Positions 4,962 through 55,594 are shown, numbered from the stretch's first letter. The stretch is DNA of 64,000 bases from an uncultured Candidatus Saccharibacteria bacterium (GCA_964613715.1 CAZTJK010000001.1:98763-162762); one strand, 5' to 3'. Program-made: numbers and translations. Notes: a model not told the origin generated them from the letters alone.

Positions 4962-4962
4962 G

Positions 4963-5038
4963 TGGTGGACCCTACCAGATTCGAACTGGTGACCTCCTCA
5001 TTGCAAATGAGGCGCTCTACCAACTAAGCTAAGGGCCC
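4963..5038 (-). tRNA. tRNA-Ala (anticodon TGC) with encoded CCA
   Basis: GGGCCCT-TA-GCTTAGTTGGTAGAGC-G-CCTCA-TTTGCAA-TGAGG-AGGTC-ACCAGTTCGAATCTGGT-AGGGTCC-ACCA, with the G3:U70 pair. Confidence 0.85.
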
Positions 5039-5078
5039 GCGAAAGCGTACTCTAGCACGATTTTTCTTTTTTTCAAAA

Positions 5079-6047: not shown

Positions 6048-6116
6048 GCGGAAAGTATACCATGGCCGACAATCAAAAAAGCTACCCATGTCAGGTAGCT
6101 TTCCGTACTGCATGCT

Positions 6117-6473
6117 TCAGGGATGCTGCTGCACCGGCAGAAGGCTCGTAAATGATGCGAGCGATCGGGATTGCTTAAATTGCTCGAGCAACTGGTCGAT
6201 CGTCATATCAGTACAGGCTGCCTCGCAGGCGAGAAAGACAACAATAAGGTTATCCTCTTCGCTTTCCGCGGTCGGTTTGGCCTCCTGCATTATTGTAGAA
6301 AACTTTTTGTATTCATCATGGGACAGCGCATTCTTGAATCTGGCAGCAATGACTGCTACCGTCTTCCTATTCCTGCGAATGCCCTGCACGAGCTCTTCAG
6401 CGCATGGAAAACATGCGTGCAAGCCGTTCGGCAATCGCCGGGCAATGCCATGTTTTGGACACCTGGCTGCCAT
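6117..6473 (-). CDS. Small Cys-rich (zinc-ribbon-like) protein, paralog 1 of a tandem pair
   Basis: GGAAAGGA Shine-Dalgarno before MAARCPKHG. Shares C..H...ACFxC.EELV and a C-terminal EEDxLIvvFL...RS motif with the gene at 6569..7051. A TTGACA-17-AATAAT promoter lies upstream. Confidence 0.55.
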   Translation of the reverse strand: MAARCPKHGIARRLPNGLHACFPCAEELVQGIRRNRKTVAVIAARFKNALSHDEYKKFSTIMQEAKPTAESEEDNLIVVFLACEAACTDMTIDQLLEQFKQSRSLASFTSLLPVQQHP

Positions 6474-6568
6474 AAAAAATCCTTTCCTCTGGAAAATAGC
6501 TTCTGTCGAGATTATTCTCCTCGAACGGGATTTTGTCAAATAAAAAGAGCCGCCCGCATGGACAGCTC

Positions 6569-7051
6569 TCACTGCAGATAAATATCCGCAAACCGGAAGA
6601 AATATTGCTGCAGATTGATGACAGAACAGATCGACCGCTCAGCACGCACCATAGCAACGACCTCGTTCATTGAGCATCGCTGGTTAAGCGCTTTTGCCAT
6701 AAGAAAGCGGAGGATAGAAATATCTTCGTCTCCGATCTTCATATGCTGAGAATCGACACGAGCAACATCGACAAGCTCGTAATATTCCTCTTGCGAGATA
6801 GCATTTTTTACTGCCCCCGCAATGAGCGCCGCATCTGAGAGGTAAAGCTCAACCAGCTCATCAATGCAGGAAAAACATGCAGTGACGCCCTCCGAAAAGC
6901 TGCGGTGAATCTGCTGATGCTCGCGGCAGAAGACGCGCGAGTTCCATGTGCAGATAGTGCAGGCGACCGACATACGGACAAGCTTGCTGCGGCGTATCGG
7001 CAGGACATGGTATTCCTGCAAATCCGTCTGACTGCAGAAATGGCAGTTCAT
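6569..7051 (-). CDS. Small Cys-rich (double zinc-ribbon-like) protein, paralog 2 of a tandem pair
   Basis: GAAAGGAGG Shine-Dalgarno 4 nt before the ATG. Motifs CHFC, CTIC and CFSC. Confidence 0.55.
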   Translation of the reverse strand: MNCHFCSQTDLQEYHVLPIRRSKLVRMSVACTICTWNSRVFCREHQQIHRSFSEGVTACFSCIDELVELYLSDAALIAGAVKNAISQEEYYELVDVARVDSQHMKIGDEDISILRFLMAKALNQRCSMNEVVAMVRAERSICSVINLQQYFFRFADIYLQ

Positions 7052-7187
7052 ACGGCCTCCTTTCTCCTGATATAAATGACCTTCCTGCTTTCAAAATAGC
7101 GTCTGCAGGCCGGGCTGTCAAACGAAAATTCTTGACTTATTTTTTCTGCATACTAGTATTGGAAGTGGAAAATGATCTTGAAAGGAG

Positions 7188-7532
7188 GTGGATATGCTAC
7201 CGATCCAGGCGAATAAATGCCGCTTGAATGTGACGGAAGATCCGCGAGTGCTCCTCGTCGAATGCAGCCATGGCAATGTTAGCACGGCTGCGATATGCCT
7301 CATGTACATCTTGGATAATGAGGTGCTCGAGCAAGGAGTATTCATGCTCGATGTGAAAGGCCCGAGCGTGCGGACGTTCGGCATCATTTTCGAAAAGATG
7401 GCGCGCAGGGCAGGGTTTGACGCGAAAGAGCTGGCTCGCAAGCTGCCGATCCATGCGGAAAACGGCTTGATCGTGGCCAATCATGGCTTCGACAGTGACC
7501 TTTTCGCGATTGGCAAGGAAATTCCTGGATAA
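7188..7532 (+). CDS. Small hypothetical protein (114 aa), putative member of the FFxP/LTxxQV small-protein family
   Basis: TTGACT-16-TAGTAT promoter, GAAAGGAGG Shine-Dalgarno and its own terminator. Core motif CRLNVTEDPRVLLVECS...AAICLMYIL. Confidence 0.55.
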   Translation: MDMLPIQANKCRLNVTEDPRVLLVECSHGNVSTAAICLMYILDNEVLEQGVFMLDVKGPSVRTFGIIFEKMARRAGFDAKELARKLPIHAENGLIVANHGFDSDLFAIGKEIPG

Positions 7533-7541
7533 GATGTATGA

Positions 7542-7570
7542 CCCGTTCCGAAAGGAGCGGGTTTTTGTTT
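7542..7570 (+). terminator. Rho-independent terminator
   Basis: Hairpin cccgttccgaaaggagcggg followed by tttttgtttt. Confidence 0.6.
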
Positions 7571-8787
7571 TAGAGGAATGCCCGCTTGCGGCGCGCGGTG
7601 TGGAATGCTACCGCGAAGCGATGCGCTTCGGTATTGGCAAGGAGGATATCCTTTTTGTATTTTTCGATAAGCGCTTCCCTGCCTTGGATCGCCTTCGGGC
7701 GATGCCGCTCGTCTTTCGTCACGGCGGCGACAGGGATATCGAGCTTCAGCGATTTCAATATTTTTTCAGCGGCATTCTTCTGCGGCAAAGCGCCGTCGAC
7801 GACGATAAGCGCAGGCAAGCGCCACTCGGCATGCGCCAGGCGACGGCGCAGCATCTCGACAAGCGCTGCTACGTCGTTCTGCATGCTCTCGTTTATCTTG
7901 AACTTGCGATACTCGACCTTGTTCGGCGCACCGTCCTCCACCACCGTCATAACGCCTACCGTATTCGTGCCGCTGATATGCGCAACGTCATATGCCTCAA
8001 TGCGGAACGCGCCTGTGCTAGCAGCGCCTGAGAAATCCGCACGCATGAGCGCCACGTCCTGGATATGGTTCAGCGCGAATATGGTCTTTTTAACTGCACC
8101 GGCTTTTTCGAATTCGCGCGCTTTCGCAAGCATCTTCATCTCCTTCGCAAGGTTCTTCAGTATATTTTTCTTCTTACCGTTAAAGAACAGTGAAATATTT
8201 TTGATAGTTTTCGCGTATTCCTGCTTTGACACGACGCCGATGCAGGTGCCGGGGCAGAGGCCGATCTGATAGTTGAAGCAGCCGCGTGGCTCGCCGAGCT
8301 TGCAGTAGTCGCGGAACGGGAATATCTTGCGGACGATCTTCACCGCGTCGCGCAACTGCGTGCCGCTCGTGAACGGGCCGAATTTCGCTTTCACTCTGTA
8401 GCCGAGCTCGTGCCCGCCCGAAAGATTCTTCCCTCGCTCTATAAGCACCCGCGGAAAATCCTCTTTCGTGATGACGACGTAATTGTAGCTCTTGTCGTCC
8501 TTTTCCTTCACATTGTATTTCGGCTGATATTTTTTGATGAGCGCGTTCTCGAGGATGAGCGCTTCGAGCACGGAGTCCGTCCGCTCGAAGGTCACCCGGT
8601 CGGCTTGGAAAACCATGTCGAGGATGGCCGGCCCGCGCGCAGCAATGAGGTCGGCAGCGAAATAGCTCTTCACGCGGTCACGGAGCAACGTTGCCTTGCC
8701 GATATAGAGAATCTGCCTGCCTTTCCTGAAGAAATAGACGCCTGGGGCCTGTGGCAGCTTAGTTTTTGCGAAATCTTGACTGTTCAT
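7570..8787 (-). CDS. uvrC: Excinuclease ABC subunit C, compact form (about 406 aa)
   Basis: GIY-YIG N-terminus (GVYFFRKGRQILYIGKA), a UvrB-interacting region and an endonuclease domain. The C-terminal HhH appears to be absent. Start trimmed to MNSQDF. Confidence 0.75.
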   Translation of the reverse strand: MNSQDFAKTKLPQAPGVYFFRKGRQILYIGKATLLRDRVKSYFAADLIAARGPAILDMVFQADRVTFERTDSVLEALILENALIKKYQPKYNVKEKDDKSYNYVVITKEDFPRVLIERGKNLSGGHELGYRVKAKFGPFTSGTQLRDAVKIVRKIFPFRDYCKLGEPRGCFNYQIGLCPGTCIGVVSKQEYAKTIKNISLFFNGKKKNILKNLAKEMKMLAKAREFEKAGAVKKTIFALNHIQDVALMRADFSGAASTGAFRIEAYDVAHISGTNTVGVMTVVEDGAPNKVEYRKFKINESMQNDVAALVEMLRRRLAHAEWRLPALIVVDGALPQKNAAEKILKSLKLDIPVAAVTKDERHRPKAIQGREALIEKYKKDILLANTEAHRFAVAFHTARRKRAFL

Positions 8788-9084: not shown

Positions 9085-11691
9085 CTATTTTTTCTTCAGC
9101 ACCCGCTTCAGATATTTCCCAGTGTGCGACTTCTCATTCATCGCCACATCTTCAGGCGTGCCTTTCGCCACGACTTCCCCGCCCTTATCCCCGCCTTCCG
9201 GCCCGATGTCGATGATATAGTCAGACGACTTGATGAGATCCATATTGTGCTCGATGACGACCACCGTATTGCCGTTGTCGACGAGCTTCTGCAAAATCTC
9301 GATGAGCTTCTTCACATCCTCGTAGTGGAGGCCGATGGTCGGCTCGTCGAGGAAATAGATCGTCTTGTACATGCCCGGGCGATAGAGCTCGGAGGATATC
9401 TTCACGCGCTGCGCCTCGCCGCCCGAAAGGGTGGTCGCGGACTGGCCAAGCTTGAGATAGCCGAGGCCGACTTGGTCGAGGCAGTGCAGGCGGTCGTAGA
9501 CCGCCGGCAAATCCTCGAAGAATTTCAATCCGTCCTCCACCGTCATCTCGAGCACTTCGTGGATATTCTTGCCCTTGTATTTGACCTCGAGCGTCTCTTT
9601 GGTAAAGCGCTTGCCATGGCAGACATCGCACGGCACGTACACTGTCGGCAGGAAATGCATTTCCACTTCGATCGTGCCATTACCTTCGCAATTCTCGCAG
9701 CGGCCGCCTTTTACGTTGAACGAGAAGCGATTTGCTCCCCAGCCGCGCTCGCGGGCCGTCGCGGTCGTGGCGAACATATCGCGGATGAATGTCCACGCGC
9801 CGGTGTACGTCGCCGGGTTCGAGCGCGGCGTGCGACCGATCGGCGACTGATCGATCATGATAACGCGCGAGAGGTATTCGGAACCTTCAAAAGAAGTCGC
9901 ATTATAGGTATTCGCCGAGCGCATCTTCTTCTCGAGCCGCGCCTGCAAGTTTTTATAGAGAATCTCGTACACGAAAGAAGACTTGCCGGAGCCGGAAACG
10001 CCCGTAACCGTCACAAGCTTGCCGAGCGGCACGTCTACGCTCATATTCTTGATATTGAACACCTTGCCGCCGCGGACTTTCAGCTTGCCCTTGTCCTGGT
10101 CGCGGCGCTTTTTCGGCAGCGGAATCTTCGCCTCGCCGCGCAGGTAGTCAAGCGTGAGCGAACCGGATTTGTTCTCCTTTGCCGTGAGCAATTCTTCGAG
10201 CCAGCCAGAGACCACCACGCGGCCGCCGTGCACGCCGGCCTTTGGCCCGATGTCCACGATATAGTCCGAGGCATACATAGTGTCCTCGTCATGCTCGACG
10301 ACGAGTATCGTATTGCCGAGGTCGCGCAAATTCACGAGCGTCTTGATGAGCTTGTCATTGTCACGCTGATGCAAACCGATCGTCGGCTCGTCGAGCACAT
10401 AGAGAGCGCCAACGAGGCCCGAGCCGAGCTGCGAAGCAAGGCGTATGCGCTGTGCCTCCCCGCCCGAGAGCGTGTTCGCCCGGCGATCAAGCGAGAGATA
10501 CTCGATACCCACATCGGTCATAAAAAGCAGGCGCGAGTCGATTTCTTTCAAGATGACTTTGCAGATTTCAGCTTCTGTCTCCGTGAGCTTCAGACTCTCG
10601 AGGAAGAGCTTGGCATCGGTGATGGATTTCGCCGTATAGTCCACGATATTCACGCCGCCAAGGAGCACATGCAGTGCCTCCTCGCGCAAGCGTGCGCCTT
10701 TGCAGGTCTCGCAGAGCTCGTCCGTGAAGAAGTCCTTGGTCCCGAGGCCGTGGCAGGCAGGGCACGCGCCATACGGCGAGTTGAATGAAAAGAGGCGCGG
10801 CTCTATCTCCGGATACGAATAGCCGTCGTATGGACACATGAATTTTACGGAGATCATTTTTGTCTCCTCGGGCGTCTCCACTTTCAGGAGCCCCTTCGAC
10901 TCCTCAATCGCTTTTTCCACCGCGTCCGACAAGCGCTCCTTAATGCCCTCTTTCTTCTCCTTGAACTCGCTTGTGTAGAATTCATCAACGAGCACGTCGA
11001 TATCGTGCTTTTTGTTTTTGGACAAAATGATCTGATTGCGCAGCTTGTGCGCCGCGCCATCTACCTTCACCTCCGTATAGCCCTTCTCAAGGAGATCATA
11101 GAGCAGCTGATAGTACTCGCCTTTCCTGCCGACGACGATCGGCGAATAGATCTTCACCTTATCGCTCGTCACTTTCACGCCGAGAATATCTTTCGATTGC
11201 TTCGGCGATTTGAGATGCGTAACGGTATGGATGATGGTCTCAAGGATTTCCTCTTTCGATAATTTCTTGATTTCCCTGTTGCACACAAGGCAATGCGGCT
11301 TGCCGATGCGCGCGTAGAGGATGCGCAGGTAGTCGTATATCTCCGTGATGGTCGCCACGGTGGAGCGCGGGTTGTTCGAGCGCGATTTCTGGTCTATGGA
11401 AATAGCCGGCGACAGGCCGATGATCTCGTCCACATCCGGCTTTTGCATCTGGTGGAGGAACTGGCGTGCGTATGAGGAAAGCGACTCCACGTAGCGGCGC
11501 TGTCCCTCGGCAAAAATGGTATCAAATGCGAATGACGATTTACCGGAACCGGAAAGGCCCGTGACCGCGATCATCTTGTTGCGCGGCATGTGCACGGTGA
11601 TGTTCTTGAGATTGTGCGTCCGCGCGCCTTTGACGACGATCTCCTTCGCCTCTTCGTCAAAACCGGTCTTTGTGCTGTGTTTCGGGCTCAT
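9085..11691 (-). CDS. uvrA: Excinuclease ABC subunit A
   Basis: Two ABC ATPase modules (GLSGSGKSS and GVSGSGKSS) with zinc-finger Cys clusters. 868 aa. Confidence 0.9.
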
Positions 11692-12132: not shown

Positions 12133-13011
12133 GTGGATAATGAAATTTTTTCTTCAAAAAAAGAACTTTTAAAATTTCTCAAGATCAGAGAAAACTTTTT
12201 GTATAATAATATCAAAGCTAAATATCAGGAAAAAAATTACAGAAAAAAAATGGTGGTTCGCGTCAAATCACAAAACCGAATAACAAATTAAAAGATGTTC
12301 AAAGAACTATACTGGATAAAATATTAGTCTTATCCCCGCAATTACCATGCGTGTATGGGTTATCAAAAAAGAAAGGCGTTGTCGCTAACGCACAAACCCA
12401 CCAAATTAACTATCCTTTTCAATTACTAACATTGGATATCAAAGATTTTTTCCCAAGCATTTCTAGAAAAAAAAATTACAGATATTTTTAAAAAAAATAA
12501 ATTTAACAAAGAAAACTCGGCAATTCTTACAAAACTATGTACTGTGAATGACTCACTGCCGCAAGGGGCGCCCACAAGCCCTTATTTGGCATCGTTGGTC
12601 TGTGAAAAAATGGATAAAAAAATCTATATTTACTGTAAGAAGAAAAAATTTATTTATACAAGATACTTTGATGATATTAGTATTTCTGGAAAAGACGTGT
12701 TGCTTGAAAAAAATATAAAAGATATTGAAAAAATTATCCAACAGCATGGTTTTATGCTAAATAATGATAAAAAATTTAGTTTTTTTGAAGCTGAAGATAA
12801 AATAATCACCGGTATAATAATTACAAATGGTAAGCTATCTGTAACTAAAGAATATAAAGATTCGATCAAGATTGCTTACAAAAATTATATTTTAGAAGAT
12901 AACCTTAAAAACCGAAATTTATTTTCGGGAAAATTTGGTTTTTATTTTCATGTGAATAAAAAAGATGCGTTGGATTTTTTACAAGAGTTAAAAAATAACA
13001 TTAATTGTTAA
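12133..13011 (+). pseudogene. Retron-type reverse transcriptase, frame interrupted by two compensating poly-A indels (possibly a pseudogene or homopolymer sequencing errors)
   Basis: Read across three frame segments the RT motifs appear in order: KKNGGSRQITKP, LKDVQRTILDKIL, VYGLSKKKGVVANAQTH (NAxxH), LDIKDFFPSI, LPQGAPTSPYLASLVC, YTRYFDDISI (YxDD) and ITGIIIT (the retron VTG-like motif). The frame shifts at an A7 run (12230-12236, one A short) and returns at an A9 run (12467-12475, one A extra). About 30% GC. Confidence 0.6.
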
Positions 13012-15042
13012 TTATTTCTTTTTCTTCCCCACCTTCCCCTCAATAGCCCGGATTTCATCCCGCAATATGGCTGCGGTTTCGAAATCGAGCATTTTCACTG
13101 CAGCGTTCATCTGTATCTCCTTTTGTTTGATGAGCTTGGCCGGGCTCTTTGCCGCAGCCGCTTCGTCTATGCGAAGCAGCTCGGCCACGGCCTTGTCATG
13201 GTCAGAGCGCAGATGCTCGGTGATGTCGTGGATTTTCTTGATGATGGTCTTCGGCGTGATGCCATGCTTGGTATTGTACGCTACCTGCTTTTCCCTGCGG
13301 CGATTCGTCTCCTCAAGGGCGCGCTCGATGCTGCCCGTCATGTTGTCGGCATAGAGCACGACACGGCCGGCGGCATTCCTCGCCGCACGGCCGATGGTCT
13401 GGATGAGCGAGGTATCGCTGCGGAGAAAGCCCTCTTTGTCCGCATCGAGTATGCCGATGAACTCTACCTCGGGCAGGTCGAGGCCCTCGCGCAAAAGGTT
13501 CACGCCGACGAGACAGTCGAACTTTCCTTTGCGGAAATTGGTCAGGATGTCGATGCGGTCTATGGTCTTTATCTCGCTATGCAGATACTCGGCCTTCACG
13601 CCTTTTTCTTTGAGATATTCCGAAAGATCCTCGGCCATTTTCTTGGTCAGGGTCGTCGCGATCACGCGGCCGTCGCGCTTCACGATCTTTTCCGTCTCGT
13701 CAATGAAGTCGTATACCTGGGACTTGTTCTTCCCCTTTACCTCGGTAATCGGCTTGATCTCGACAATCGGGTCCACGAGGCCCGTCGGACGGATGATCTG
13801 CTCTACGGTATTCTCGGAATGCTCGCGCTCGAAATCGCCCGGCGTGGCCGAAGTATAGATGACCTGGTTCACCCGATCCTCAAACTCCGGGAACTGCAGC
13901 GGGCGGTTGTCCTTGGCGGAGGGCAAGCGGAAGCCGTAGTCCACGAGCGTCTTTTTGCGCGAAGCATCGCCTGCGTACATGCCGCGCAGCTGCGGCACTG
14001 TGACATGCGATTCGTCGATGACGGTCAAGAAATCCGGGCTGCCATCTGCTTTGTGCGGGAAATACGCGAGCAGGGTTTCCGGCGGTTCGCCGGCTTTTTT
14101 GCCCGAGAAATGCCGCGCATAATTCTCGATGCCATTGCAATAGCCGACCTCGCGGATGAGCGAGAGGTCATGCGTGGTACGGCGGCGCAAGCGCTCGGCC
14201 TCGAGCTGCTTCCCTTCTTTCTTCAGCTCCGCGACGCGCTCATCGAGCTCTATCTTGATGCTTTCGATCGCGCGCTTCTGCTCGTCTTTGTTCGTCACGA
14301 AATGCTTGGCCGGAAAGATGAAAATTGCTTTCAGATTGTCTTCCGTAATTTTCCGCGAAACTGAGTCAATTTTCGTGATGCGGGAAATCGCATCATCCTC
14401 AAAATCCACTCGAATGAGAATTTTCTCGCCCGTCGGCATGACTTCGACAGAGTTGCCCACCGCGCGGAATTGGCCGGGCTTCACATCAGTATTGGTCCTC
14501 GTGAAATACACGCCGATGAGCCGCTTGATGAGATCCTGGCGGGACTGCTTGTCGCCCACTGATAGCTTGATATTCGTTTTCTCGTATTCTGCCGGGGAGC
14601 CGAGGCCGTAGATGCAGGAAACGGATGCGACGATGATGACGTCTTTTCTCGTGAGCAGGGCCTGGGTGGAGGCATGGCGCAGGCGGTCTATCTCCTCGTT
14701 TATCATCGCCTCTTTTTCTATGTACGTGTCGGTAATCGGCATATACGCCTCCGGCTGATAGTAGTCGTAATAGGAGACGAAATAATGCACGGCATTGTCC
14801 GGGAAGAACTCCTTGTACTCCTGCGCGAGCTGGGCCGCGAGCGTCTTGTTGTGCGCGATGACCAAGGTCGGCTTCTGCGCTTTTTCAATGACATTGGCAA
14901 CGGTAAAGGTCTTGCCGGTGCCGGTCGCGCCGTAGAGTATCTGCTTTTTCAAGCCCTTTTTGAGGCCCTCTGCGAGGGATTTGATGGCCTCTGGCTGGTC
15001 GCCTGCGGGCGCGTATTCGTTCTTGATCTTGAATCTGTCCAT
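13012..15042 (-). CDS. uvrB: Excinuclease ABC subunit B
   Basis: Helicase motifs (GATGTGKTF), a UvrB interaction domain and a C-terminal UVR coiled coil. 676 aa. Confidence 0.9.
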   Translation of the reverse strand: MDRFKIKNEYAPAGDQPEAIKSLAEGLKKGLKKQILYGATGTGKTFTVANVIEKAQKPTLVIAHNKTLAAQLAQEYKEFFPDNAVHYFVSYYDYYQPEAYMPITDTYIEKEAMINEEIDRLRHASTQALLTRKDVIIVASVSCIYGLGSPAEYEKTNIKLSVGDKQSRQDLIKRLIGVYFTRTNTDVKPGQFRAVGNSVEVMPTGEKILIRVDFEDDAISRITKIDSVSRKITEDNLKAIFIFPAKHFVTNKDEQKRAIESIKIELDERVAELKKEGKQLEAERLRRRTTHDLSLIREVGYCNGIENYARHFSGKKAGEPPETLLAYFPHKADGSPDFLTVIDESHVTVPQLRGMYAGDASRKKTLVDYGFRLPSAKDNRPLQFPEFEDRVNQVIYTSATPGDFEREHSENTVEQIIRPTGLVDPIVEIKPITEVKGKNKSQVYDFIDETEKIVKRDGRVIATTLTKKMAEDLSEYLKEKGVKAEYLHSEIKTIDRIDILTNFRKGKFDCLVGVNLLREGLDLPEVEFIGILDADKEGFLRSDTSLIQTIGRAARNAAGRVVLYADNMTGSIERALEETNRRREKQVAYNTKHGITPKTIIKKIHDITEHLRSDHDKAVAELLRIDEAAAAKSPAKLIKQKEIQMNAAVKMLDFETAAILRDEIRAIEGKVGKKKK

Positions 15043-25976: not shown

Positions 25977-26030
25977 TGCGATCCTCCCACATGGAAATAA
26001 CGACACTAATAGAAATATACCATGTAATAT

Positions 26031-26759
26031 CTATTTGTCAAGATAGTGGCGCAGCGTGTAGAGCCAGTCTTCTTCCCCTTCTTCATTCGTACGCTTCTGC
26101 TCGAAAAGCCATTCGAGATACCGGCGATCCGTCTTCAGCACTTCTTCAATAGTCTTGCCATTGTATTTGCCAAAATTGAACTTGGTGAAGAGCACCGGCG
26201 TGCGAGAAATCTCCATCATGCGCTCGATCGCTGCCGCTTCGCTCCCCGCCTCTGCTGTCATTTTTGCAAGCAGCCGCGGAAATATTGCTGCAAGCACGCG
26301 CACATCCCCCTCGGCATCATGCGCCGTGCCTGTTACATCAAGGTGCAGATAGTAGCGGAGAAATTGCAGGCCGTATTCAGGAATGGCATTCTCCTTGTCG
26401 AGATAGCGCGCCATGCGGAAGGTGCAGATGAAGCGCGGCACGGAAATACCTTCAGACTCGAGCATGCTGATATCGAATTTCGCATTATGCGCCACGAGTA
26501 TTCCCTGCTCAAGCAGCTTTTGCAGATCCTTTGCCATGCTACTCCCAGCAAATGCTGGCTTGTCCGCCAGCATCTCATTCGTAATATGATTGATGCTCAT
26601 AGACTTCACAGACACCGGCATTGGCGGCTTGAAGTATTCAGTGCGTATCGTCTCCCCTGCCTGATAGCAGACTTGGCAAAGCCGGTCTGTGCCAAGAATA
26701 TTTCCAGTCGTTTCAGTGTCGAGGAAAATGAGCGGTAAATTATTAAATTTAGATTGCAT
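26031..26759 (-). CDS. DnaQ-like 3'-5' exonuclease (DEDDh family) with a C-terminal extension
   Basis: Exo I motif LIFLDTETTG and Exo III motif HNAKFDISML. Confidence 0.65.
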   Translation of the reverse strand: MQSKFNNLPLIFLDTETTGNILGTDRLCQVCYQAGETIRTEYFKPPMPVSVKSMSINHITNEMLADKPAFAGSSMAKDLQKLLEQGILVAHNAKFDISMLESEGISVPRFICTFRMARYLDKENAIPEYGLQFLRYYLHLDVTGTAHDAEGDVRVLAAIFPRLLAKMTAEAGSEAAAIERMMEISRTPVLFTKFNFGKYNGKTIEEVLKTDRRYLEWLFEQKRTNEEGEEDWLYTLRHYLDK

Positions 26760-26788
26760 TTCTTTTTTGCTATTAAAAACAGTTGCTT

Positions 26789-27490
26789 TTATTTCTGAGT
26801 AATTAAAGCATACTTTTGAAGATTTTCTATAATTTTTGGTCTAACTATCTTATTTACCCAAATAGAATATAACCAAAGAATTGTATTATAAGTTTGAGTC
26901 TCAGTCATAATATCTCTTACAAAAAATAAAGCTGCTGCATTTTGTTCAATTAATTCAATAAATGCGACATGTAATGGTATTAATGCCGAATTTTCAATAG
27001 TATTTAAATTTTTTACTTTCAGGGCAAATTCTTCTAACATGTTTAATAAACTTATATGTAAATCTAAGATTGTATCATCAATTTTTGCTGTTTCAGGATT
27101 AAAAAATATTAATAACTGATTAGTAAAATTGCTTGAATCTCTCTGCATTAAATCACTAATAATATGTTTTTCGATATGGATGCTAGGAAACAGAAAAGAA
27201 CTGTTTTTCTTTAAAAAAGCCTTGCTAGTGTGTATCCACTCCAAAAGAATTTTTTCGCGAAAAAAAGTTACCTGGTCTATTGCAGCCGCAGTAAGATCTT
27301 GTTGTTTTTTGTAAAAATAGTTTACTATAGCAATAATTAAAGAAAAAGCACCAAAACTACTTAAAACTTTTTGAATAATATCTAACTGAAATTCAGATAA
27401 AGTTTTTAATCCTATCAAATAACCAATTAAAAATAACAGAAAACCTGCAAAGCAAAGAAGGAGAAATGTTACGATGTCTTTTTTTATCAT
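26789..27490 (-). CDS. Hypothetical 2-TM membrane protein encoded in a second AT-rich island (about 28% GC)
   Basis: Two N-terminal TM helices, then a soluble domain of about 160 aa. A TAAAAT box 12 nt upstream of the ATG. Its composition matches the retron island rather than the flanking genes. Confidence 0.45.
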   Translation of the reverse strand: MIKKDIVTFLLLCFAGFLLFLIGYLIGLKTLSEFQLDIIQKVLSSFGAFSLIIAIVNYFYKKQQDLTAAAIDQVTFFREKILLEWIHTSKAFLKKNSSFLFPSIHIEKHIISDLMQRDSSNFTNQLLIFFNPETAKIDDTILDLHISLLNMLEEFALKVKNLNTIENSALIPLHVAFIELIEQNAAALFFVRDIMTETQTYNTILWLYSIWVNKIVRPKIIENLQKYALITQK

Positions 27491-27517
27491 ATCTTTATCG
27501 TAATTTTAACATATTTT

Positions 27518-28087
27518 ATGTATACTATACTTATGAAAAAGCTTCTCTATTACATAGCTATACTCACGATCATCGTGGTCGGATTCCATTATCTCTCCCC
27601 TTACCTGCCAAAAGCTGGCGCGCCGCAAGCGGCAGCATTTGCTGATCCAAAAAATGGCACGTACACTATCGAGAATGAAAAGGTTACGCTCGCGAGCGGC
27701 AAAGCGGAGCAGAGCGTGACGCCAGATTCAAGTTCGAAAGAGATCACGGAATATTTCGGGAATGTTGCTACGGGTGATGTGAATGGCGATGGTCTGCCAG
27801 ACAAGGTGTTTCTTCTCGTGCAGGCAGGCGGTGGCAGCGGCACCTTTTACTATATTGCCGTAGCGCTTGGTGCGAAAAGCGGCGGCTATACGGGTACAAA
27901 TGCAGTATTTATCGGCGACCGTATTGCTCCGCAAAGCACTGAAATAAACAAAGGAAATATCATCGTAAACTATGCAGACCGCCTGCCGGGCGAACCTTTC
28001 ACTGCCGAGCCGACCATCGGCATGTCAAAATATTTCCGAGTGACGAATGGCGTGCTTGCCGAGATAAAGAATCCGAATTCGGATTAG
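27518..28087 (+). CDS. Membrane-anchored or secreted hypothetical protein
   Basis: N-terminal TM or signal segment. GDVNGDGLPD-like motif. 189 aa. Confidence 0.45.
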   Translation: MYTILMKKLLYYIAILTIIVVGFHYLSPYLPKAGAPQAAAFADPKNGTYTIENEKVTLASGKAEQSVTPDSSSKEITEYFGNVATGDVNGDGLPDKVFLLVQAGGGSGTFYYIAVALGAKSGGYTGTNAVFIGDRIAPQSTEINKGNIIVNYADRLPGEPFTAEPTIGMSKYFRVTNGVLAEIKNPNSD

Positions 28088-34651: not shown

Positions 34652-34936
34652 TTAGGATTTTTTGATCGTCTTATAGCGCTCAAAAGTGAGCGGATCGGTC
34701 TGCACGTCCCAATGTACGGGCCACATCTTCCTGATAAGCCAGGTACCCGGCCACAAAAAGATGCCGAGGCAGAATCCGCCAAAACTATTATCACGCCGAT
34801 CGAAAGGCTTCACATAGCACCGGTATGCAAGCCAGGCTTCCTTTCCATGAGCGCGTATCAAGCAGCACGCGAACAGATTCACCAGAAGCCAAATCGTTAT
34901 GATCAGCATCAAAACAAGCAAACTCTTCGAGTCCAT
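34652..34936 (-). CDS. Small membrane protein (94 aa)
   Basis: GAAGGAG Shine-Dalgarno 6 nt before MDSKS. Two hydrophobic helices. Confidence 0.45.
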   Translation of the reverse strand: MDSKSLLVLMLIITIWLLVNLFACCLIRAHGKEAWLAYRCYVKPFDRRDNSFGGFCLGIFLWPGTWLIRKMWPVHWDVQTDPLTFERYKTIKKS

Positions 34937-35009
34937 GACATACTCCTTCATGACAGATTGGAAATTGCTTCTGGCGAGATAATACCACTGATTCTCGAAT
35001 TGTCAAAAA

Positions 35010-37301
35010 TTATTTCGCCACCTGCACTGCTTCTTCAAACTGTATGGAAAGCAAACGCGAGACACCGTCGGCGCCCATGGTGACGCCATAAATGATGCCG
35101 GCGCGGGACATGGTCTCGCGGTTATGCGTGATGAGGATGAGCTGCGAGTATTTGGAAAGTTCTGCGATCATGTCGCCGTATTTCTTTGAGTTTGCCTCGT
35201 CGAGCGCAGCATCGGTCTCATCAAGAATGATGAATGGCGGCGGGTTCACGGCAGAAATAGCGAAAAGGAGTGCGATGGAGGTAAGCGCGCGCTCGCCGCC
35301 CGAGAGCATCATGAGGCCCTTCACTTTCTTCCGGGGCAAGGACACCTCGATATCAAGACCCTCCTCGGCTTCCTCTTCAGCCTCGGCAAGGTCCTCACCA
35401 TCATCCCCTGTCGGCAGGTCAGTATCTGCGCGCTTGCGTTTCTTTTCCTTTACGACGGAGAGTGATGCTGCGCCGCCGCCGAACATCGCGGTGAAGAATT
35501 TCTCGAACTCGGCATTGATCTTGGCAACGCCATTCTTGAACTCGCTCGTGAGCTTCTCGTCGAGCTCCTTGATGAGATTCTTCAATGATTCGGCTGATTT
35601 GATGAGATCCTCAAGCTCGCGCGCAAGAAAGACATCACGCTCGCTCGTCTCCTTGTATTCTTTCACGATATCATCGCTGCCGGCAACGCCCGCGTCCTCG
35701 AGGCGGATCTTTATCTTCTCGATATCGCGGCGACGCTCTTCCTGCGCAGTTCTCGGCTCTTTCGCCACCTGCTCGATAGTAAGCGCCGTGCCGTTTTCCG
35801 TCGGCCAGAAATCCTTGTAGCGGAGCGCTTGCACGCCGACAAGCACGGAACCTTCCTGCAATTCCCGCTTGAATTCCTCCTCGTCATGGCGCACTTTCGC
35901 TTCGCGCGCTTCTACCTGCGCGAGCTTGCCGCGGATATCATTCTGCTCGGCCACGATGCGGAACATCGCCTTTTCGGCATCGCGGTTCGAATCGCGCTCT
36001 TTTTCGATCTCATTCTTGAGAAACGTATACTGCTCGGAAAGCTCTGTCTCCATCTTATCCGCATCGGCCATTTTGGCTTCATTGGTCTTCTTTTCGGCTT
36101 CGAGCTTCCTGACATCGTTTTCGATATCGCTCATTTCCTGCTTTGCTTCGGTCTCGCGATGCTTCTGGATAAATTCAGAAAGGATTTTGCGGATAGCGGA
36201 GAAAATCTGGCGTAGCTTCGATGGGTCCGGGCTCTGCATAGCTGCATCGATCTCAAGATCTATCTGCTTTGCCAGATTCTCCACGCTGGCAAGCTCGACT
36301 GTTTTCTTCAGGCTATTGGCGCTTGCTTCTTTCTGTTTTTGCAGAAGGCGCAAGAGCGACGCTATCTCGCCTTCGATGCGACCAATTGCGCGGGACAATG
36401 CATCTTTTGCGCTGCGAGCATCTTTCAGCTTGCCTTCGACGCGCATGACGTCGCTCGTCTTTTCGTCTTTCGATGACGACTTCGCAAGCGTCTCGCGCGC
36501 AGCGGCAAGGTCTTTTTCAAGCCGTTCGCTTGTCTTTGCAAGCGGCGCTTTCTCATCAGCAACAGCCTTTTTCTCGAAATTGACATACTCCTCCTCGCGG
36601 CGGAAATACTCGTGATACATAGCCACGAGACTATCCTTCATCTCAATCGTTTTCTCGATCTTTTCCACCTGCTTTTTTAGGAAGCGGATATGCGGCGCGA
36701 TTTCGCGGCGGAGCGACTCCACCTGCTTGATATTTTCATCCGTCTTCTCAAGCTTGCGCTCGCTTTCCTCTTTTTTATATTGAAATATCTTTAGGCCAAG
36801 CGCGTCCTCGATGATCTCCCGGCGCTCGCGGATATTGGCATTCAAAATGCGATCTGCTTCGCCCTGCGAGATAATCTGGTGGCCCGAAGCACCGATATGC
36901 GCATTCGCCAGAAGCTCGATAATGTCTTTGAGACGCACTGGTGAGCCATTGATCAGGTATTCGCTTGATGAATCGCGGTTCACGACACGCTCGATGGCAA
37001 CATCGTCAAAATCAATATTGAGAATGCGCTCGATATTGTTGAAGACGAGCTTTACCGATGCGCGGTTCGATCGTGGCGCATCCTTGCCACCATTAAAAAT
37101 GAGGTCTTCCGCCCGCTTGCCGCGCAGCGACTTGATGGACTGCTCGCCGAGCACGAAACGGAATGCTTCTGCCACATTCGACTTACCCGAGCCATTTGGG
37201 CCGACGATCGCGGCGATCGGCGTGGTGAATTCGAGCGCGCCTTTCTTGCCGAATGACTTGAATCCGGAGATTTCGATGCTTTTGAGATACATTGGCTCCA
37301 T
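35010..37301 (-). CDS. SMC-family ATPase (compact chromosome-segregation SMC or RecN/SbcC-like), 763 aa
   Basis: Walker A GPNGSGKSN, a long coiled coil, then the signature LSGGERALTS and D-loop ILDETDAALD. Confidence 0.7.
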   Translation of the reverse strand: MEPMYLKSIEISGFKSFGKKGALEFTTPIAAIVGPNGSGKSNVAEAFRFVLGEQSIKSLRGKRAEDLIFNGGKDAPRSNRASVKLVFNNIERILNIDFDDVAIERVVNRDSSSEYLINGSPVRLKDIIELLANAHIGASGHQIISQGEADRILNANIRERREIIEDALGLKIFQYKKEESERKLEKTDENIKQVESLRREIAPHIRFLKKQVEKIEKTIEMKDSLVAMYHEYFRREEEYVNFEKKAVADEKAPLAKTSERLEKDLAAARETLAKSSSKDEKTSDVMRVEGKLKDARSAKDALSRAIGRIEGEIASLLRLLQKQKEASANSLKKTVELASVENLAKQIDLEIDAAMQSPDPSKLRQIFSAIRKILSEFIQKHRETEAKQEMSDIENDVRKLEAEKKTNEAKMADADKMETELSEQYTFLKNEIEKERDSNRDAEKAMFRIVAEQNDIRGKLAQVEAREAKVRHDEEEFKRELQEGSVLVGVQALRYKDFWPTENGTALTIEQVAKEPRTAQEERRRDIEKIKIRLEDAGVAGSDDIVKEYKETSERDVFLARELEDLIKSAESLKNLIKELDEKLTSEFKNGVAKINAEFEKFFTAMFGGGAASLSVVKEKKRKRADTDLPTGDDGEDLAEAEEEAEEGLDIEVSLPRKKVKGLMMLSGGERALTSIALLFAISAVNPPPFIILDETDAALDEANSKKYGDMIAELSKYSQLILITHNRETMSRAGIIYGVTMGADGVSRLLSIQFEEAVQVAK

Positions 37302-37361
37302 TCTAGCAGATCCGAGGAAAGAAAAAAGGCCGGTTCTGCCTTGCAGAACCGGCCTTTTTTC

Positions 37362-37673
37362 TTATGCCGCGGTCTCGAAATCAAGCTCTTTCACACCAGT
37401 ATCGAGACTTTCGATGAATCGTTTAATCTTGCCGTCTTCCGTATCGAAAAATTCATATTGACCGCGATCAGAGGAAAGCTCCGGGGATAGGAGGCTCCAG
37501 AGATAGTATTTTTCTGGGTTCTTCAGCTGCTTTTTCAGCTTTTCCATATCGCGGTACGCTCCTTCCGGCTTTTCGGATGATTCGAAGAAATTCGCCGTGA
37601 TCGGCAAGAGCTCATCGAGCGTCTCCTGCTCCTCGAATGAAAGCGTATTCTGTTCAAGTCCTTCGAATTTCAT
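37362..37673 (-). CDS. Small hypothetical protein, member 3 of a tandem paralog triplet
   Basis: C-terminal YYLWSLLSPEL...KRFIESLD resembles its two upstream neighbours. A TATAAT box 8 nt before the ATG suggests a leaderless message. Confidence 0.5.
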   Translation of the reverse strand: MKFEGLEQNTLSFEEQETLDELLPITANFFESSEKPEGAYRDMEKLKKQLKNPEKYYLWSLLSPELSSDRGQYEFFDTEDGKIKRFIESLDTGVKELDFETAA

Positions 37674-37709
37674 TGTTTCTCATTATACACGCTTCCCAGT
37701 AAAAATCAT

Positions 37710-38057
37710 CTACAGGCTGCGGATAAATTTCTCGAGATCATGGTCCGGCGTATCAAGCTCGGCAATATTATCCGGCAGCGTACTGCCAACAAGCTTATGC
37801 CAGAGCATGTACTGCCTTGGAGTTTTACCGCTTGCGGATAATTTTTTCTTGAATTCCTCATTGAAACGGCTGATTTTGTCGAATCGCTCTATAACGTGCT
37901 CTTTGGATACCTTATCATTACGCATATTCGCTGCATGCGCATCAATCAGCCCGCTCACTTCAAACCACTTATTTTTTGTTTCCGGATCAAGCCGATTCAG
38001 CACAATACCTTCATGCTGATCCCGAAGCTCATCCTCACGGCGAAAATTTTCAGTCAT
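37710..38057 (-). CDS. Small hypothetical protein, member 2 of a tandem paralog triplet
   Basis: C-terminal LWHKLVGSTLPDNIAELDTPDHDLEKFIRSL. Confidence 0.55.
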   Translation of the reverse strand: MTENFRREDELRDQHEGIVLNRLDPETKNKWFEVSGLIDAHAANMRNDKVSKEHVIERFDKISRFNEEFKKKLSASGKTPRQYMLWHKLVGSTLPDNIAELDTPDHDLEKFIRSL

Positions 38058-38059
38058 AA

Positions 38060-38395
38060 TTATTTTAAATCCTTAATGAAATTCTCAATCATGTGATCCG
38101 GTGTATCGAGGACAAGCTTCTTGTTCGGCAGTGTCATGCCCATGAGCACGTGCCAGAGAGCAAAGCTGTTGGTATTTCCTTTCTTGGAAAGCTTGTAATC
38201 GAAATCCTTGATCTTTTTCTGCCGGTCGATTTTCGCAAACATGTCCTTGTTCTCGGTAATGGCATCCATATGCTTCTTCATCTCGAGAAAGGTATGCTGC
38301 TCCTCCGGGCTCAAATAGGCCGGGGCTTTTTCCGACTCTTCATGCAGATCGCCAAGGATCTGCTCATTTATTCTCTGGTTTTGTTCGCTCAACAT
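38060..38395 (-). CDS. Small hypothetical protein, member 1 of a tandem paralog triplet
   Basis: C-terminal LWHVLMGMTLPNKKLVLDTPDHMIENFIKDL. A TATAAT box 14 nt upstream of the ATG. Confidence 0.55.
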   Translation of the reverse strand: MLSEQNQRINEQILGDLHEESEKAPAYLSPEEQHTFLEMKKHMDAITENKDMFAKIDRQKKIKDFDYKLSKKGNTNSFALWHVLMGMTLPNKKLVLDTPDHMIENFIKDLK

Positions 38396-38410
38396 ATAGT
38401 AGTGTTTCGA

Positions 38411-39115
38411 TTATAACCACCCCTTCACTTCCAAAGCCTTCCGCGCAGCGATCTGCTCGGCTTCCTGCTTCGACTTTCCTTCACCCTCGGAGATCTTATC
38501 CTCTCCCAAGTATACACCAACCGTGAACTTTTTGTCATGGTCCGGCCCCTCTTCTTTCAGGGTCTTGTAAGAGGGCGTGATTCCCTCCTGATTCTGGGCC
38601 TCTTCCTGGAATTTGCTCTTGGCATCGAGCCACGTCTTCTCTTCCACGATCTTCTCGATCAGATTGAAAATATTCTTCGAGATAAAGTATTTGGCCGTCT
38701 CATAGCCCTGGTCGAGGAATATCGCGCCGATCAAGGCTTCGATCGTGTTAGCCAGGATGATCTGCCGCGCGCGGCCCATATCTTTCGCCTCACCTTTGGA
38801 CAGAAGGAGATAGTCGTTCATACCGATCTTCGCAGCGGCGTCAGAGAGCGTGATCGCATTCACGAGCGCCGAGCGATATGCAGTCAGCGCGCCTTCATTT
38901 GAATCCGGATACTTATTGTAAAGATAATCGGTCACAATAAGCTCGAGCACCGCATCGCCGAGAAATTCAAGACGCTCATTATGCACAAGCTCTTCGCGAT
39001 GCTCATTCAAATATGAGCGATGCGTGAATGCCTGCTCTAAGAGCTTCCGCTCTCGAAAAGTAATGCCGATCGCTTTCTCGAATCGAGTAAAATCAGGTTT
39101 CATCATGGTGGCCAC
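38411..39115 (-). CDS. rnc: Ribonuclease III
   Basis: Signature ERLEFLGDAVLEL and a C-terminal dsRBD. Confidence 0.9.
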   Translation of the reverse strand: MATMMKPDFTRFEKAIGITFRERKLLEQAFTHRSYLNEHREELVHNERLEFLGDAVLELIVTDYLYNKYPDSNEGALTAYRSALVNAITLSDAAAKIGMNDYLLLSKGEAKDMGRARQIILANTIEALIGAIFLDQGYETAKYFISKNIFNLIEKIVEEKTWLDAKSKFQEEAQNQEGITPSYKTLKEEGPDHDKKFTVGVYLGEDKISEGEGKSKQEAEQIAARKALEVKGWL

Positions 39116-39124
39116 AAGCCCTTA

Positions 39125-40027
39125 CTAGGAGGACTTTTTGGTACTGATCATAGTAATCGCCTTGGTGATGATTGGCAAGATATCATTATAGAAATTGAGA
39201 TTCTGAATGTCCTGCAACTTAAACCATTTTGCGTCATCGAGGCCGCCAGAATCGCCAAGCTTGAGGTCCTTCATTTCTGCTCGCGCGAGAAAATACATCA
39301 CCTGCTTTCGGATCTTGCCCTCCTCGGGATGATTGGCTACGTATTCATTTTTCAACAGCTCGTCCTCGATCGTGATATCGACGCCCATTTCTTCTTTAAT
39401 CTCGCGGACAGCGCCTTGCTTTGGATCCTCACCTTCTTCTATCTTGCCCTTTGAGAGGGTCCAGCGGCCGAACACATCGTGGACGAGCGCAAGATAAATG
39501 CTGCCATTGTGAATGCAATACACCACTGCTCCGGCAAGGCGCTTGATCGGCATTTTCTCAAATGGAATATCCTTGCGGTTTTTCTTTGACACTTCTTCCT
39601 TGCCCGGCTCTCCAAGCTCTTTATATATAGTGCCGAGCACACCATTGATGAAACCGCCGGATTTTTCGCCGCCATAAACCTTGGCAAGCTCGATGGCTTC
39701 ATTGATAGCGACTTTCGCCGGCACTTCCTTGCGATCGGCAAAGAGAAGCTCATAGAGCCCGATGCGCAGGATATTGCGGTCCGTCATGGAGATTTTCTCG
39801 ATTGGCCAATCAGGCGCGGCTTTCACAATGATGGCATCAAGATCAGCCTTCTTGTCGATGAGACCAGCAAGGAGTTTTTCAGAAAATGCCTTTTCAGAAT
39901 CGCCATCGCCGAATTCCTTCGCATTGCGAGAGAGAGAAGCAAGCGTGTCTTCGCGGGAAAGATTCCTGAAATCCCACTCGAAGGCGGTCTGGAGGACTAT
40001 TGATCTTGCAAGATGCCTCGACGACAT
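39125..40027 (-). CDS. nusB: NusB antitermination factor fused to a C-terminal NUDIX hydrolase domain
   Basis: NusB region VPAKVAINEAIELAKVYGGEKSGGFINGVLG. NUDIX box GKIEEGEDPKQGAVREIKEEMGV. Start trimmed to MSSRHLARS. Confidence 0.75.
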   Translation of the reverse strand: MSSRHLARSIVLQTAFEWDFRNLSREDTLASLSRNAKEFGDGDSEKAFSEKLLAGLIDKKADLDAIIVKAAPDWPIEKISMTDRNILRIGLYELLFADRKEVPAKVAINEAIELAKVYGGEKSGGFINGVLGTIYKELGEPGKEEVSKKNRKDIPFEKMPIKRLAGAVVYCIHNGSIYLALVHDVFGRWTLSKGKIEEGEDPKQGAVREIKEEMGVDITIEDELLKNEYVANHPEEGKIRKQVMYFLARAEMKDLKLGDSGGLDDAKWFKLQDIQNLNFYNDILPIITKAITMISTKKSS

Positions 40028-40399: not shown

Positions 40400-40990
40400 C
40401 TACCTGCCGATACTCCTTCTCATCAATACTGCGGTATAGATGCCAAGAAGCTTGCTGTTGTGCTGCTTGAACTGCGGATCGAGACCCGCTTTCCGTAAGA
40501 ACGCCCGCATGAAGCCTTCCTGATGTTCCTCGGGCAATTGCTCCTGCAAAAGCTCGATGTCCATCATATTGGCAAGCACGATCTTTTGTTCGCCGTCGAC
40601 CAATTCCCTCATTTCGATGGACCCATCCTCCGTCGCCTTGGGATAATTCCGCAGCTGGGTGATGAGATGGTAGACGTCGCCTGAATTCGGATGAACATGC
40701 TTGTGCGTCCCGCGGATTTCAGGTCCTTCGGGATACACTTCTTCCGATTTCATATGCGTGCATTTCATTTCCTCGAACTGCTTCTTCAACCTCCAAACGA
40801 GATCGAGCCGGTGAATCGTAGTTTCCGATTCAATACTCCCGCTAGGCAATTGAACGGTGACGATATGCTCATCACCGAAATCAAGATGCCCTTTGACGAG
40901 CGCGTACCATTTCTGCGTACGCCCCGGATCAGGGTTGAAAAAATAGATTCCGAAAATGCTGCGCTTCAGCAACTCTGAACAAGTGTCCAT
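40400..40990 (-). CDS. Hypothetical protein (196 aa)
   Basis: GAGGAGG Shine-Dalgarno 9 nt before MDTCSELL. Confidence 0.5.
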
Positions 40991-41174
40991 AGTAGGTATC
41001 CTCCTCACAACGTGCTGTGCACATTCTAATGTATAAGACGGCTCAGGGAGCCTTTTCTTACATCACAGAATAGTGCTTCTAAGTACTATTTTACATATAT
41101 TATACAATTTGTCAAGTATTTCCTGGGGAATAGAAAAACCCCGATATTCCACTTCGGCATATCGGGGTTTGCTT

Positions 41175-41705
41175 TCACTCTGCAGCCGGCATGAGCAATC
41201 GCTCGCGCTTCACGAGAGCAAAATACGCGCTCGTATTGGCCATGAAGAAATCATGATCGGGACGCAGCATATCCATGAACTTCTTGAAAGCAGGGATATG
41301 ATTGGCGTATAGATGCTCGGCGATGTATGCGATTTCTCGCAACTCTGCCTGCACCTCATGACCATCCTCTTCACGCATGATTCTCGGCTCTCCGCCGATC
41401 ACGAGCGCATTCCCTTGGAATGAATCTCCGAGGAGGAAATGCTGCTCGCTTGCACCATCTGGCGTCAGCTGGCTGTGCAAATGCTTGCACGGCGGCACAG
41501 CGACAAGGCCGGTTTCTTCATGGTATTCCCGGATGGCTGTCTGCTCCTGGGTTTCCATGAGCTTGCTCATGCCACCCGGGATTTTTACGTCTTTCGGGTA
41601 GCAGCACAAGTCGGTAACAACCGGCATATACCATTTCCCTGTTTTCTTATCGAAGAGAACAACGATAAGACCTGCCCAATATGGCTTCAGCGCATGGTTT
41701 TCCAT
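41175..41705 (-). CDS. NUDIX hydrolase
   Basis: NUDIX box PGGMSKLMETQEQTAIREYHEETGL. A terminator hairpin follows (ccccgatat..atatcgggg followed by a T-run). Confidence 0.7.
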   Translation of the reverse strand: MENHALKPYWAGLIVVLFDKKTGKWYMPVVTDLCCYPKDVKIPGGMSKLMETQEQTAIREYHEETGLVAVPPCKHLHSQLTPDGASEQHFLLGDSFQGNALVIGGEPRIMREEDGHEVQAELREIAYIAEHLYANHIPAFKKFMDMLRPDHDFFMANTSAYFALVKRERLLMPAAE

Positions 41706-55550: not shown

Positions 55551-55594
55551 ATTGAGCGATTATAGCCAAAAAAGCCTTAAAATCAAAGGAGAAA

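Follow-up and report, generated by a model that had tools for sequence, protein, structure and literature searches.

The stretch of DNA analysed here, 64,000 nucleotides (nt) from an uncultured Candidatus Saccharibacteria bacterium (GCA_964613715.1 CAZTJK010000001.1:98763-162762; hereafter the window), carries directly behind rnc, the gene for RNase III, a triplet of small minus-strand genes that are real protein-coding genes and paralogs of one undescribed protein family. Two types of member, here termed A and B, make up the family, and the window holds two A genes (A1 and A2) followed by a single B gene. As judged from sequence comparison, the A/B split is old and the ordered A...A-B array is conserved across many Patescibacteria. 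The family matches no described family or fold class detectable by the tools used, and is hence unclassified and not a variant of something known.

Three paralogous genes of one family

An earlier note on this DNA had described three consecutive minus-strand open reading frames (ORFs) of 103, 115 and 111 amino acids (aa) next to rnc; the coordinates proved exact, and the C-terminal motifs quoted there are present. That these ORFs are genuine genes follows from synteny conserved in many genomes and from low ratios of nonsynonymous to synonymous substitution (dN/dS), which lie between 0.06 and 0.12 in close, unsaturated ortholog pairs and between 0.25 and 0.6 in more distant ones; the coding signal on which the earlier description depended is thus present. 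The family is under purifying selection, yet its rate of evolution far exceeds that of the rnc and smc genes on either side. Within the window, A2 and A1 share 40% identity (BLASTP E=4e-15), and the B gene is the more diverged copy that had already been singled out by its YYLWSLLSPE segment, matching A2 at E=8e-5 and A1 at only E=0.014. At the level of profiles, the A and B types align at 99.7% in hhalign (E=5e-27).

A word-indexed search with the profile of the three copies retrieved only two foreign relatives, both on contigs in which rnc is followed by two small genes and these by smc; once the upstream small genes of those contigs had been added and the search iterated, the set comprised 14 proteins. 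When 1.84 billion cluster representatives were scanned exhaustively with HMMER, 163 family representatives emerged at E<=1e-3, 41 of them at E<=1e-10. Members are about 100 aa long, nearly all of them falling between 90 and 130 aa. Genomic loci were recovered by scanning GTDB genome contigs with a 15-sequence A-type alignment, and all members placed in this way belong to metagenome-assembled genomes of Patescibacteria (Paceibacteria/Paceibacterota, Minisyncoccia and Staskawiczbacteria).

Pfam, NCBIfam, PHROGs and PADLOC returned nothing significant for any of the three copies, and the family profile, searched against PDB sequences, gave nothing below E=0.3, in agreement with the earlier statement that no known function could be ascribed to the family. 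Run on 116 aligned members, Pfam produced scattered single-member noise and no consistent family, and no Rosetta-stone fusion was detected with it among 10 longer members. A scan of viral contigs revealed no family relatives, and nothing relevant was found in the literature on RNase III or SMC partners in the candidate phyla radiation (CPR). The sole database name encountered was the label 'UPF0297 family' given by JGI to one member (P0012).

Two types in a fixed order

A-type proteins are characterized by [YF]xLWHxLxGS...DTPDxxIExFI and are near neutral in the window, with an isoelectric point (pI) of about 6 (6.2), whereas B-type proteins present LW[STN]LLSP[ED] or LGGVLL, then FDTEDGxIxRFI, and are strongly acidic, with an extra C-terminal tail. 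When every syntenic gene was scored against A and B sub-profiles, A1 obtained 83 bits with the A profile versus 42 with the B profile and A2 obtained 100 versus 42, while the third window gene scored 99 bits with the B profile versus 39 with the A profile. The number of copies differs between genomes, and their arrangement obeys a simple rule: one to three A units come first and at most one B follows, always in last place and beside smc. Loci with a single copy contain an A type in L019, L026-29, L035 and L036, and a B type once, in L011. The window follows the rule, the order after rnc being A1, A2 and B, as do two natural fusions, an A-A-A protein of 317 aa (P0016) and an A-A protein of 219 aa (P0025), each with a separate B gene after it. 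Moreover, the triplet of locus L017 supplies a reciprocal best match for each of the window genes A1, A2 and B, and the arrangement must therefore be older than this genome and not the outcome of a recent local duplication. Hence, the paralogy implied by the earlier view of a locally duplicated family stands, but a recent local triplication is at odds with the old A/B split and with the L017 partners.

Conservation of the C-terminal block

Conservation was counted over 153 single-domain representatives. The C-terminal signature first seen in the three window copies recurs in their homologs and can be written for the family as [YF]xLWHxLxGS, 8-14 residues, (F/L)DTxDxxIExFI. Its sole invariant residue is D102 (153/153); the other conserved positions are I108 (139), E109 (136), L85 (134), F111 and I112 (133 each), T103 (124), Y83 (117), W86 (97), S92 (93), H87 (90) and G91 (86). 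The 'invariant DTPDH' of the earlier note reduces to this single aspartate, since the proline is retained in 68 and the histidine (H106) in 41 of the 153 representatives (27%); H106 is replaced by G, N, K or R in most members, glycine (59) being commoner than histidine. The LWH histidine, H87, is retained in 59% and lost in all B types, and no conserved His/Cys/Ser set exists among these representatives. The family is acidic overall, with a median pI of 4.85.

Predicted structure

The AlphaFold2 model of A2, obtained with 116 sequences, has a predicted local distance difference test score (pLDDT) of 90.4 and a predicted template modelling score of 0.77, and consists of five helices: three long ones (residues 3-21, 25-46 and 52-74) and, in the C-terminal part, a short LWH helix (84-90) and the IExFI helix (107-114), with a loop between them. 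The B protein, modelled by AlphaFold with 45 B-type sequences (pLDDT 79.9), has a C-terminal half like that of A2 and a shorter N-terminal part. The models are all-helical, containing only an isolated beta-bridge (residues 82 and 100 in the A2 model). Foldseek found no significant match for the A model in PDB and BFVD, or for the B model in PDB. In the A2 model the D-T-x-D segment lies in the turn directly preceding the last helix, where T-P-D can be interpreted as an N-capping box of that helix.

Genomic neighbourhood

The family lies directly behind rnc in about 14 distinct lineages (the window, L001/L002, L008, L011, L013/14, L016, L017, L019, L021, L026-29, L031, L033, L035 and L036), and five sampled members, all of A type (L015, L018, L034, L038 and L040), occupy unrelated neighbourhoods at a distance from rnc. 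In most lineages, the window among them, the first family gene starts 1-15 nt behind rnc; in L001 and L008 this spacing is about 145 nt. Where the downstream gene is readable, it is smc in 12 of 13 lineages, after a spacer of 8-325 nt (8-10 nt in some lineages) that often includes a TGnTAGAAT box. In L031 the array, of A-A-A/B form, is still found with rnc, but the next gene (4835-7597) is not smc: its product is a predicted membrane protein of 920 aa to which Pfam gives no match. This shows that the linkage of rnc to smc has been broken at least once. Overall, the positional tie of the family is tighter to rnc than to smc. Both of the neighbours that the earlier note had proposed to look for, SMC and rnc, do recur, rnc being the more faithful partner. 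Several genes related to RNA processing are found in the neighbourhood, namely nusB-Nudix, rnc, RNase R, rpsP, a KH protein gene and trmD.

A degron-like tail in the B type

An Ala-Ala C-terminus is present in 31 of 159 representatives, as opposed to 0 of 221 background ORFs (taken from the fetched loci, with a length of 150 aa or more). At least 25 of these 31 proteins, including the B protein of the window, are of B type, and only two are of A type. The B tails are acidic, terminate in [ILMEK]-A-A-COOH and are predicted to be disordered, the last residues of the B-type model having a pLDDT below 50. A C-terminal ...LAA is recognised by ClpX on ssrA-tagged proteins and on some native substrates. 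By analogy, the B-type tail resembles this C-terminal degron (C-motif-1), the likeness residing in an AA-COOH end that is enriched over background and is borne on an acidic tail of predicted disorder; the ssrA tag, however, is added by tmRNA, whereas the B-type tail is genetically encoded.

Gene layout and transcription signals

The genes of the locus and its candidate signals are listed in Table 1. The array appears to belong to a transcription unit nusB/Nudix-rnc-A1-A2-B that is closed by a strong terminator before smc, and the terminator-like hairpin after rpmF likely marks where this operon starts. The closing hairpin has a perfect 21-bp stem that includes an A-run/U-run, a 3-nt loop and a U-rich tail, and its folding energy of -42.5 kcal/mol (z = -7.8) was equalled by 0 of 200 shuffled sequences.

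Table 1. Genes and candidate transcription signals at the array (window coordinates)
Feature	Coordinates	Strand	Product or match	Signature or remarks	Position
A1 (copy 3), A type	38060..38395	-	111 aa, pI 6.2	FALWHVLMGMT...LDTPDHMIENFIKDL	First gene after rnc, 15-nt gap
A2 (copy 2), A type	37710..38057	-	115 aa, pI 6.2	YMLWHKLVGST...LDTPDHDLEKFIRSL	2 nt behind A1
B (copy 1), B type	37362..37673	-	103 aa, pI 4.4, net charge -11.5	YYLWSLLSPE...FDTEDGKIKRFIESL, then tail ending -TAA (two C-terminal alanines; ...FETAA)	Nearest smc
rnc	38411..39115	-	Canonical RNase III, 234 aa; Pfam; TIGR02191, 255 bits		Directly upstream of A1
nusB-Nudix fusion gene	39125..40027	-	300 aa from conserved Met		First gene of presumed operon
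Short smc	35010..37292	-	760 aa from conserved MYLKSIE start; TIGR02168	Without hinge region	
TATAAT hexamer	37682..37687	-		Possible internal promoter	8 nt upstream of B ATG
TATAAT hexamer	38410..38415	-		Overlaps rnc stop codon	14 nt upstream of A1 ATG
Intrinsic-terminator-like hairpin	37319..37363	-		Begins at B stop codon	Between triplet and smc
Terminator-like hairpin	40110-40089	-			Downstream of rpmF, upstream of nusB-Nudix gene
TGCTAGAAT box	37300-37308	-			7 nt before conserved smc ATG

The TATAAT boxes reported by the earlier note at 8-14 nt upstream of two of the starts are indeed there, and had been taken to suggest leaderless messages. For the B gene a leaderless start is plausible, because its hexamer lies 8 nt upstream and a like geometry is seen at two other ORF starts of the window (1071 and 55550), where TATAAT (1079-1084 and 55559-55564, both on the minus strand) precedes the ORF by 7-8 nt; this organism may make frequent use of leaderless mRNAs. 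Since A1 and A2, on the other hand, are packed 15 and 2 nt behind the preceding genes, they are more likely to be expressed polycistronically with the nusB-rnc operon than from leaderless messages of their own. The consensus scan found no -35 element matching the B-gene hexamer, and the window total of 28 TATAAT hexamers is not above chance (20.6 +/- 4.7 expected). A TGnTAGAAT box, similar to an extended -10 element, is kept just upstream of smc in the window, L001, L013, L016 and L021, and in some relatives it stands only 3 nt before the apparent smc start, which suggests either that the smc message is leaderless or has a very short leader, or that the start codons are mis-set. Rfam matches in the window were limited to three tRNAs, and at the triplet locus Rfam recognised no RNA element.

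A possible role in RNase III function and its alternatives

It may be postulated, with low confidence (a probability of about 0.3), that the products of the array form a non-enzymatic A/B hetero-oligomer acting on or with RNase III or its RNA-processing step, with B controlled or docked through its -AA tail. In such a mechanism, the A and B proteins would be protein-binding subunits devoid of enzymatic activity, and the complex into which they assemble would serve as modulator or escort of RNase III, the partner encoded in their operon, or of the step in rRNA/RNA processing that this enzyme performs. The C-terminal block, that is, the LWHxLxGS turn and the IExFI helix capped by D-T-x-D, would serve both as core of the fold and as interaction surface, and through its acidic -AA tail B would be a regulator of short life, timed by proteolysis, or else the bearer of a docking peptide. 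The hetero-oligomer is suggested by the ordered A-before-B array, which never has more than one B, and by the A-A(-A) fusions that leave B separate. The presence of just one invariant residue, the lack of a His/Cys/Ser set, the small helical bundle and the acidity of the proteins argue for a non-enzymatic function, and the adjacency to rnc in about 14 lineages, kept in L031 without a downstream smc, points to RNase III, as does the presence of RNA-processing genes in the neighbourhood. A protein regulator of RNase III exists in E. coli, where YmdB, an alpha/beta macrodomain protein, plays this part. Its likeness to the family concerns the proposed role only, that of a small protein binding or modulating RNase III, the family sharing an operon with rnc; YmdB has no sequence or fold relationship to the all-helical family.

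Several observations weigh against this mechanism. Gene adjacency is the sole functional link, and rpmF...rnc-smc...rpsP-trmD is an ancient housekeeping cluster in which unrelated genes ride together, the rnc-smc-ftsY order of B. subtilis being one example of it. Furthermore, the five A-type members mentioned above are found away from rnc, and no known RNase III regulator resembles the family. Finally, smc follows immediately in 12 lineages, sometimes after only 8-10 nt, so that a link to SMC is also conceivable. The A and B proteins might then be accessory non-SMC subunits of the hinge-less 760-aa SMC encoded downstream, analogous to ScpA/ScpB or MukF/MukE, an explanation that we regard as improbable. 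Besides the constancy of smc as the next gene (12 of 13 readable lineages), it draws on the atypical character of this SMC, which lacks a hinge, falls below the TIGR02168 cut-off and might need unusual partners, and on the acidic and apparently heteromeric nature of the family; in addition, no ScpA or ScpB was noticed in the subset of window ORFs that was scanned. Kleisin/KITE pairs are likewise acidic, and the Muk, Mks and Jet systems are encoded as two small genes followed by that of the SMC protein, as in mukF-mukE-mukB. Nonetheless, the family proteins are two to three times smaller than ScpA/ScpB, MukF/MukE, MksF/E and JetA/B; a length of about 100 aa does not suffice for bridging two SMC heads, and their purely helical models contain no winged-helix domains. 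Matches to SMC_ScpA (PF02616) or ScpB (PF04079) were obtained for 0 of 116 members and for none of the window copies, in the window B is followed by a strong terminator and smc preceded by a promoter-like box of its own, the L031 array stays with rnc where smc is not downstream, and five members lie far from any smc.

The JGI label of P0012 raises another alternative, in which the family would be a very remote relative of IreB/ReoM (UPF0297, PF06135) and would act as a regulated adaptor for some other target. IreB/ReoM proteins are small helical phosphoproteins of Firmicutes that bind a target enzyme (MurA) and control its inhibition or ClpCP-dependent degradation (for ReoM, PMC7286690). P0012 aligns in register with the Pfam IreB model, albeit below threshold (E=0.18, 12.5 bits for a cut-off of 25), and the B-type profile reaches 56% (P=1e-4) in hhalign against a shallow IreB alignment (Neff 1.6, its listed matches almost all from Streptococcus), running collinear with it across helix-KGxNP-helix-LxG(S/D). 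Both groups consist of acidic, all-helical cytoplasmic proteins of about 90-110 aa with an acidic amphipathic C-terminal helix after L-x-G-(S/D), and a connection with regulated proteolysis, which the degron-like tail would fit, is conceivable in both. Against the same shallow alignment, however, the whole-family profile attains 28% and the A-type profile only 5.6%; PF06135 is matched by one of 10 members tested permissively and by 0 of 116 at E<=0.01, and Foldseek with either model retrieves none of 5US5, 6TIF and 7Y8Z, even at E<=10. The N-termini, of the form ME[GNSR]F-x-E/K..., lack a conserved threonine matching the phospho-threonine (PASTA kinase site) of IreB/ReoM, the family has two additional N-terminal helices, belongs to another phylum and exists as an A/B paralog array absent from IreB, and the genomic context differs, all of which leads us to judge such kinship unlikely. 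We are still less inclined to see in the D-T-P-D-H and LWH residues a site for metal binding or catalysis, as the earlier note had proposed for DTPDH, and in the products small enzymes or metal sensors. In its favour, D102 is invariant, D105 and E109 occur frequently, as does H87 within the A type, and in the A2 model the beta-bridge (82, 100) links the segment beside the LWH helix to that beside the D-T-x-D turn. But a single residue is invariant, both histidines are poorly conserved (H106 in 27%; H87 in 59% and in no B type), no enzyme or metal-binding family or fold was matched, and the T-P-D preceding the helix reads like an N-capping box, D-T-x-D lying in the pre-helix turn. Scarcely credible, finally, is a selfish or defence module, be it a toxin-antitoxin pair with B as unstable acidic antitoxin or a phage-derived cassette behind rnc. 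An acidic partner with a degron-like tail beside a near-neutral one, and a copy number that varies among genomes, are what such a module might present, but the chromosomal position is stable in many lineages with flanking synteny kept, the A and B proteins are homologous to each other, unlike typical toxin-antitoxin pairs, the GC content of the triplet is like that of its surroundings, and no PADLOC, PHROG or Pfam matches and no viral-contig relatives were found.

Two further identities were considered and rejected. The D-T-x-D segment recalls the D-S-L-D of acyl carrier proteins (PF00550), and the B. subtilis gene order is acpA-rnc-smc; however, there was no PF00550 match in 116 members and no fold match, and the position of the serine is occupied by threonine in 124 of 153 representatives, serine being outside the five commonest residues. 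An EF-hand-like reading of FDTEDGxIE was set aside on inspection, as its spacing misfits the 12-residue loop.

Patescibacteria (CPR) account for a large share of bacterial diversity and have tiny genomes with many unannotated proteins; lineage-specific hypothetical proteins are common in them, and nearly every gene that such small genomes retain should matter. The present family goes beyond a routine hypothetical protein in its fixed place within a core operon, its A...A-B grammar with fusions, its degron-like tail and its atypical SMC neighbour. Embedded as it is in a core information-processing cluster (nusB, rnc and smc), it is a concrete and testable candidate regulator specific to this lineage, with RNase III or an unusual hinge-less SMC as the putative target. 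At a minimum, it constitutes a new domain family for databases, defined by a clean signature and accompanied by structure models of good confidence; 'new' here means unclassified, the mechanism being a proposal. More speculatively, and with rather low odds, the A/B array may be a hitherto unknown regulatory-subunit pair for a core machine of the Patescibacteria, either an RNase III module with a B subunit timed through its -AA end or the subunits of the hinge-less SMC. Were the former true, acidic B would be a proteolytically timed inhibitor or specificity factor for rRNA/RNA processing; were the latter true, the array would provide the missing non-SMC subunits and with them a new, kleisin-independent mode of ring closure or regulation.

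Neighbouring genes and other features of the window

The NusB protein encoded upstream of rnc carries a Nudix hydrolase domain at its C-terminus, a fusion that is found directly upstream of rnc in every related locus, and a second, stand-alone Nudix gene is located at 41175-41705 (-). The window SMC scores 525 bits with TIGR02168, under the equivalog cut-off of 567 bits; its residues 2-480 align to positions 1-474 of the 1181 in the model and the alignment then jumps to the C-terminal head, and Pfam gives no SMC_hinge match in this protein. The length of SMC is 759-763 aa in all relatives. Two ORFs flanking the operon, of 202 aa (40400-41008, -) and 99 aa (34652-34951, -), have no Pfam or NCBIfam matches, the latter resembling a small membrane protein; the slot after smc is filled in relatives by non-homologous unannotated genes.

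Elsewhere in the window, a decayed retron-type reverse transcriptase (12133-13011, +) is located between uvrA (9085-11691) and uvrB (13012-15042), in an island of low GC content (0.425). A 155-aa ORF (12544-13011) aligns with positions 135-280 of the 289 in the retron St85 reverse transcriptase model (E=6e-28), and the short ORFs upstream of it contain the earlier reverse transcriptase motifs in other frames, so that the element looks, from its sequence, like a frameshifted pseudogene. A second low-GC island spans 26001-28000, with a GC content of 0.405 versus about 0.51 elsewhere.

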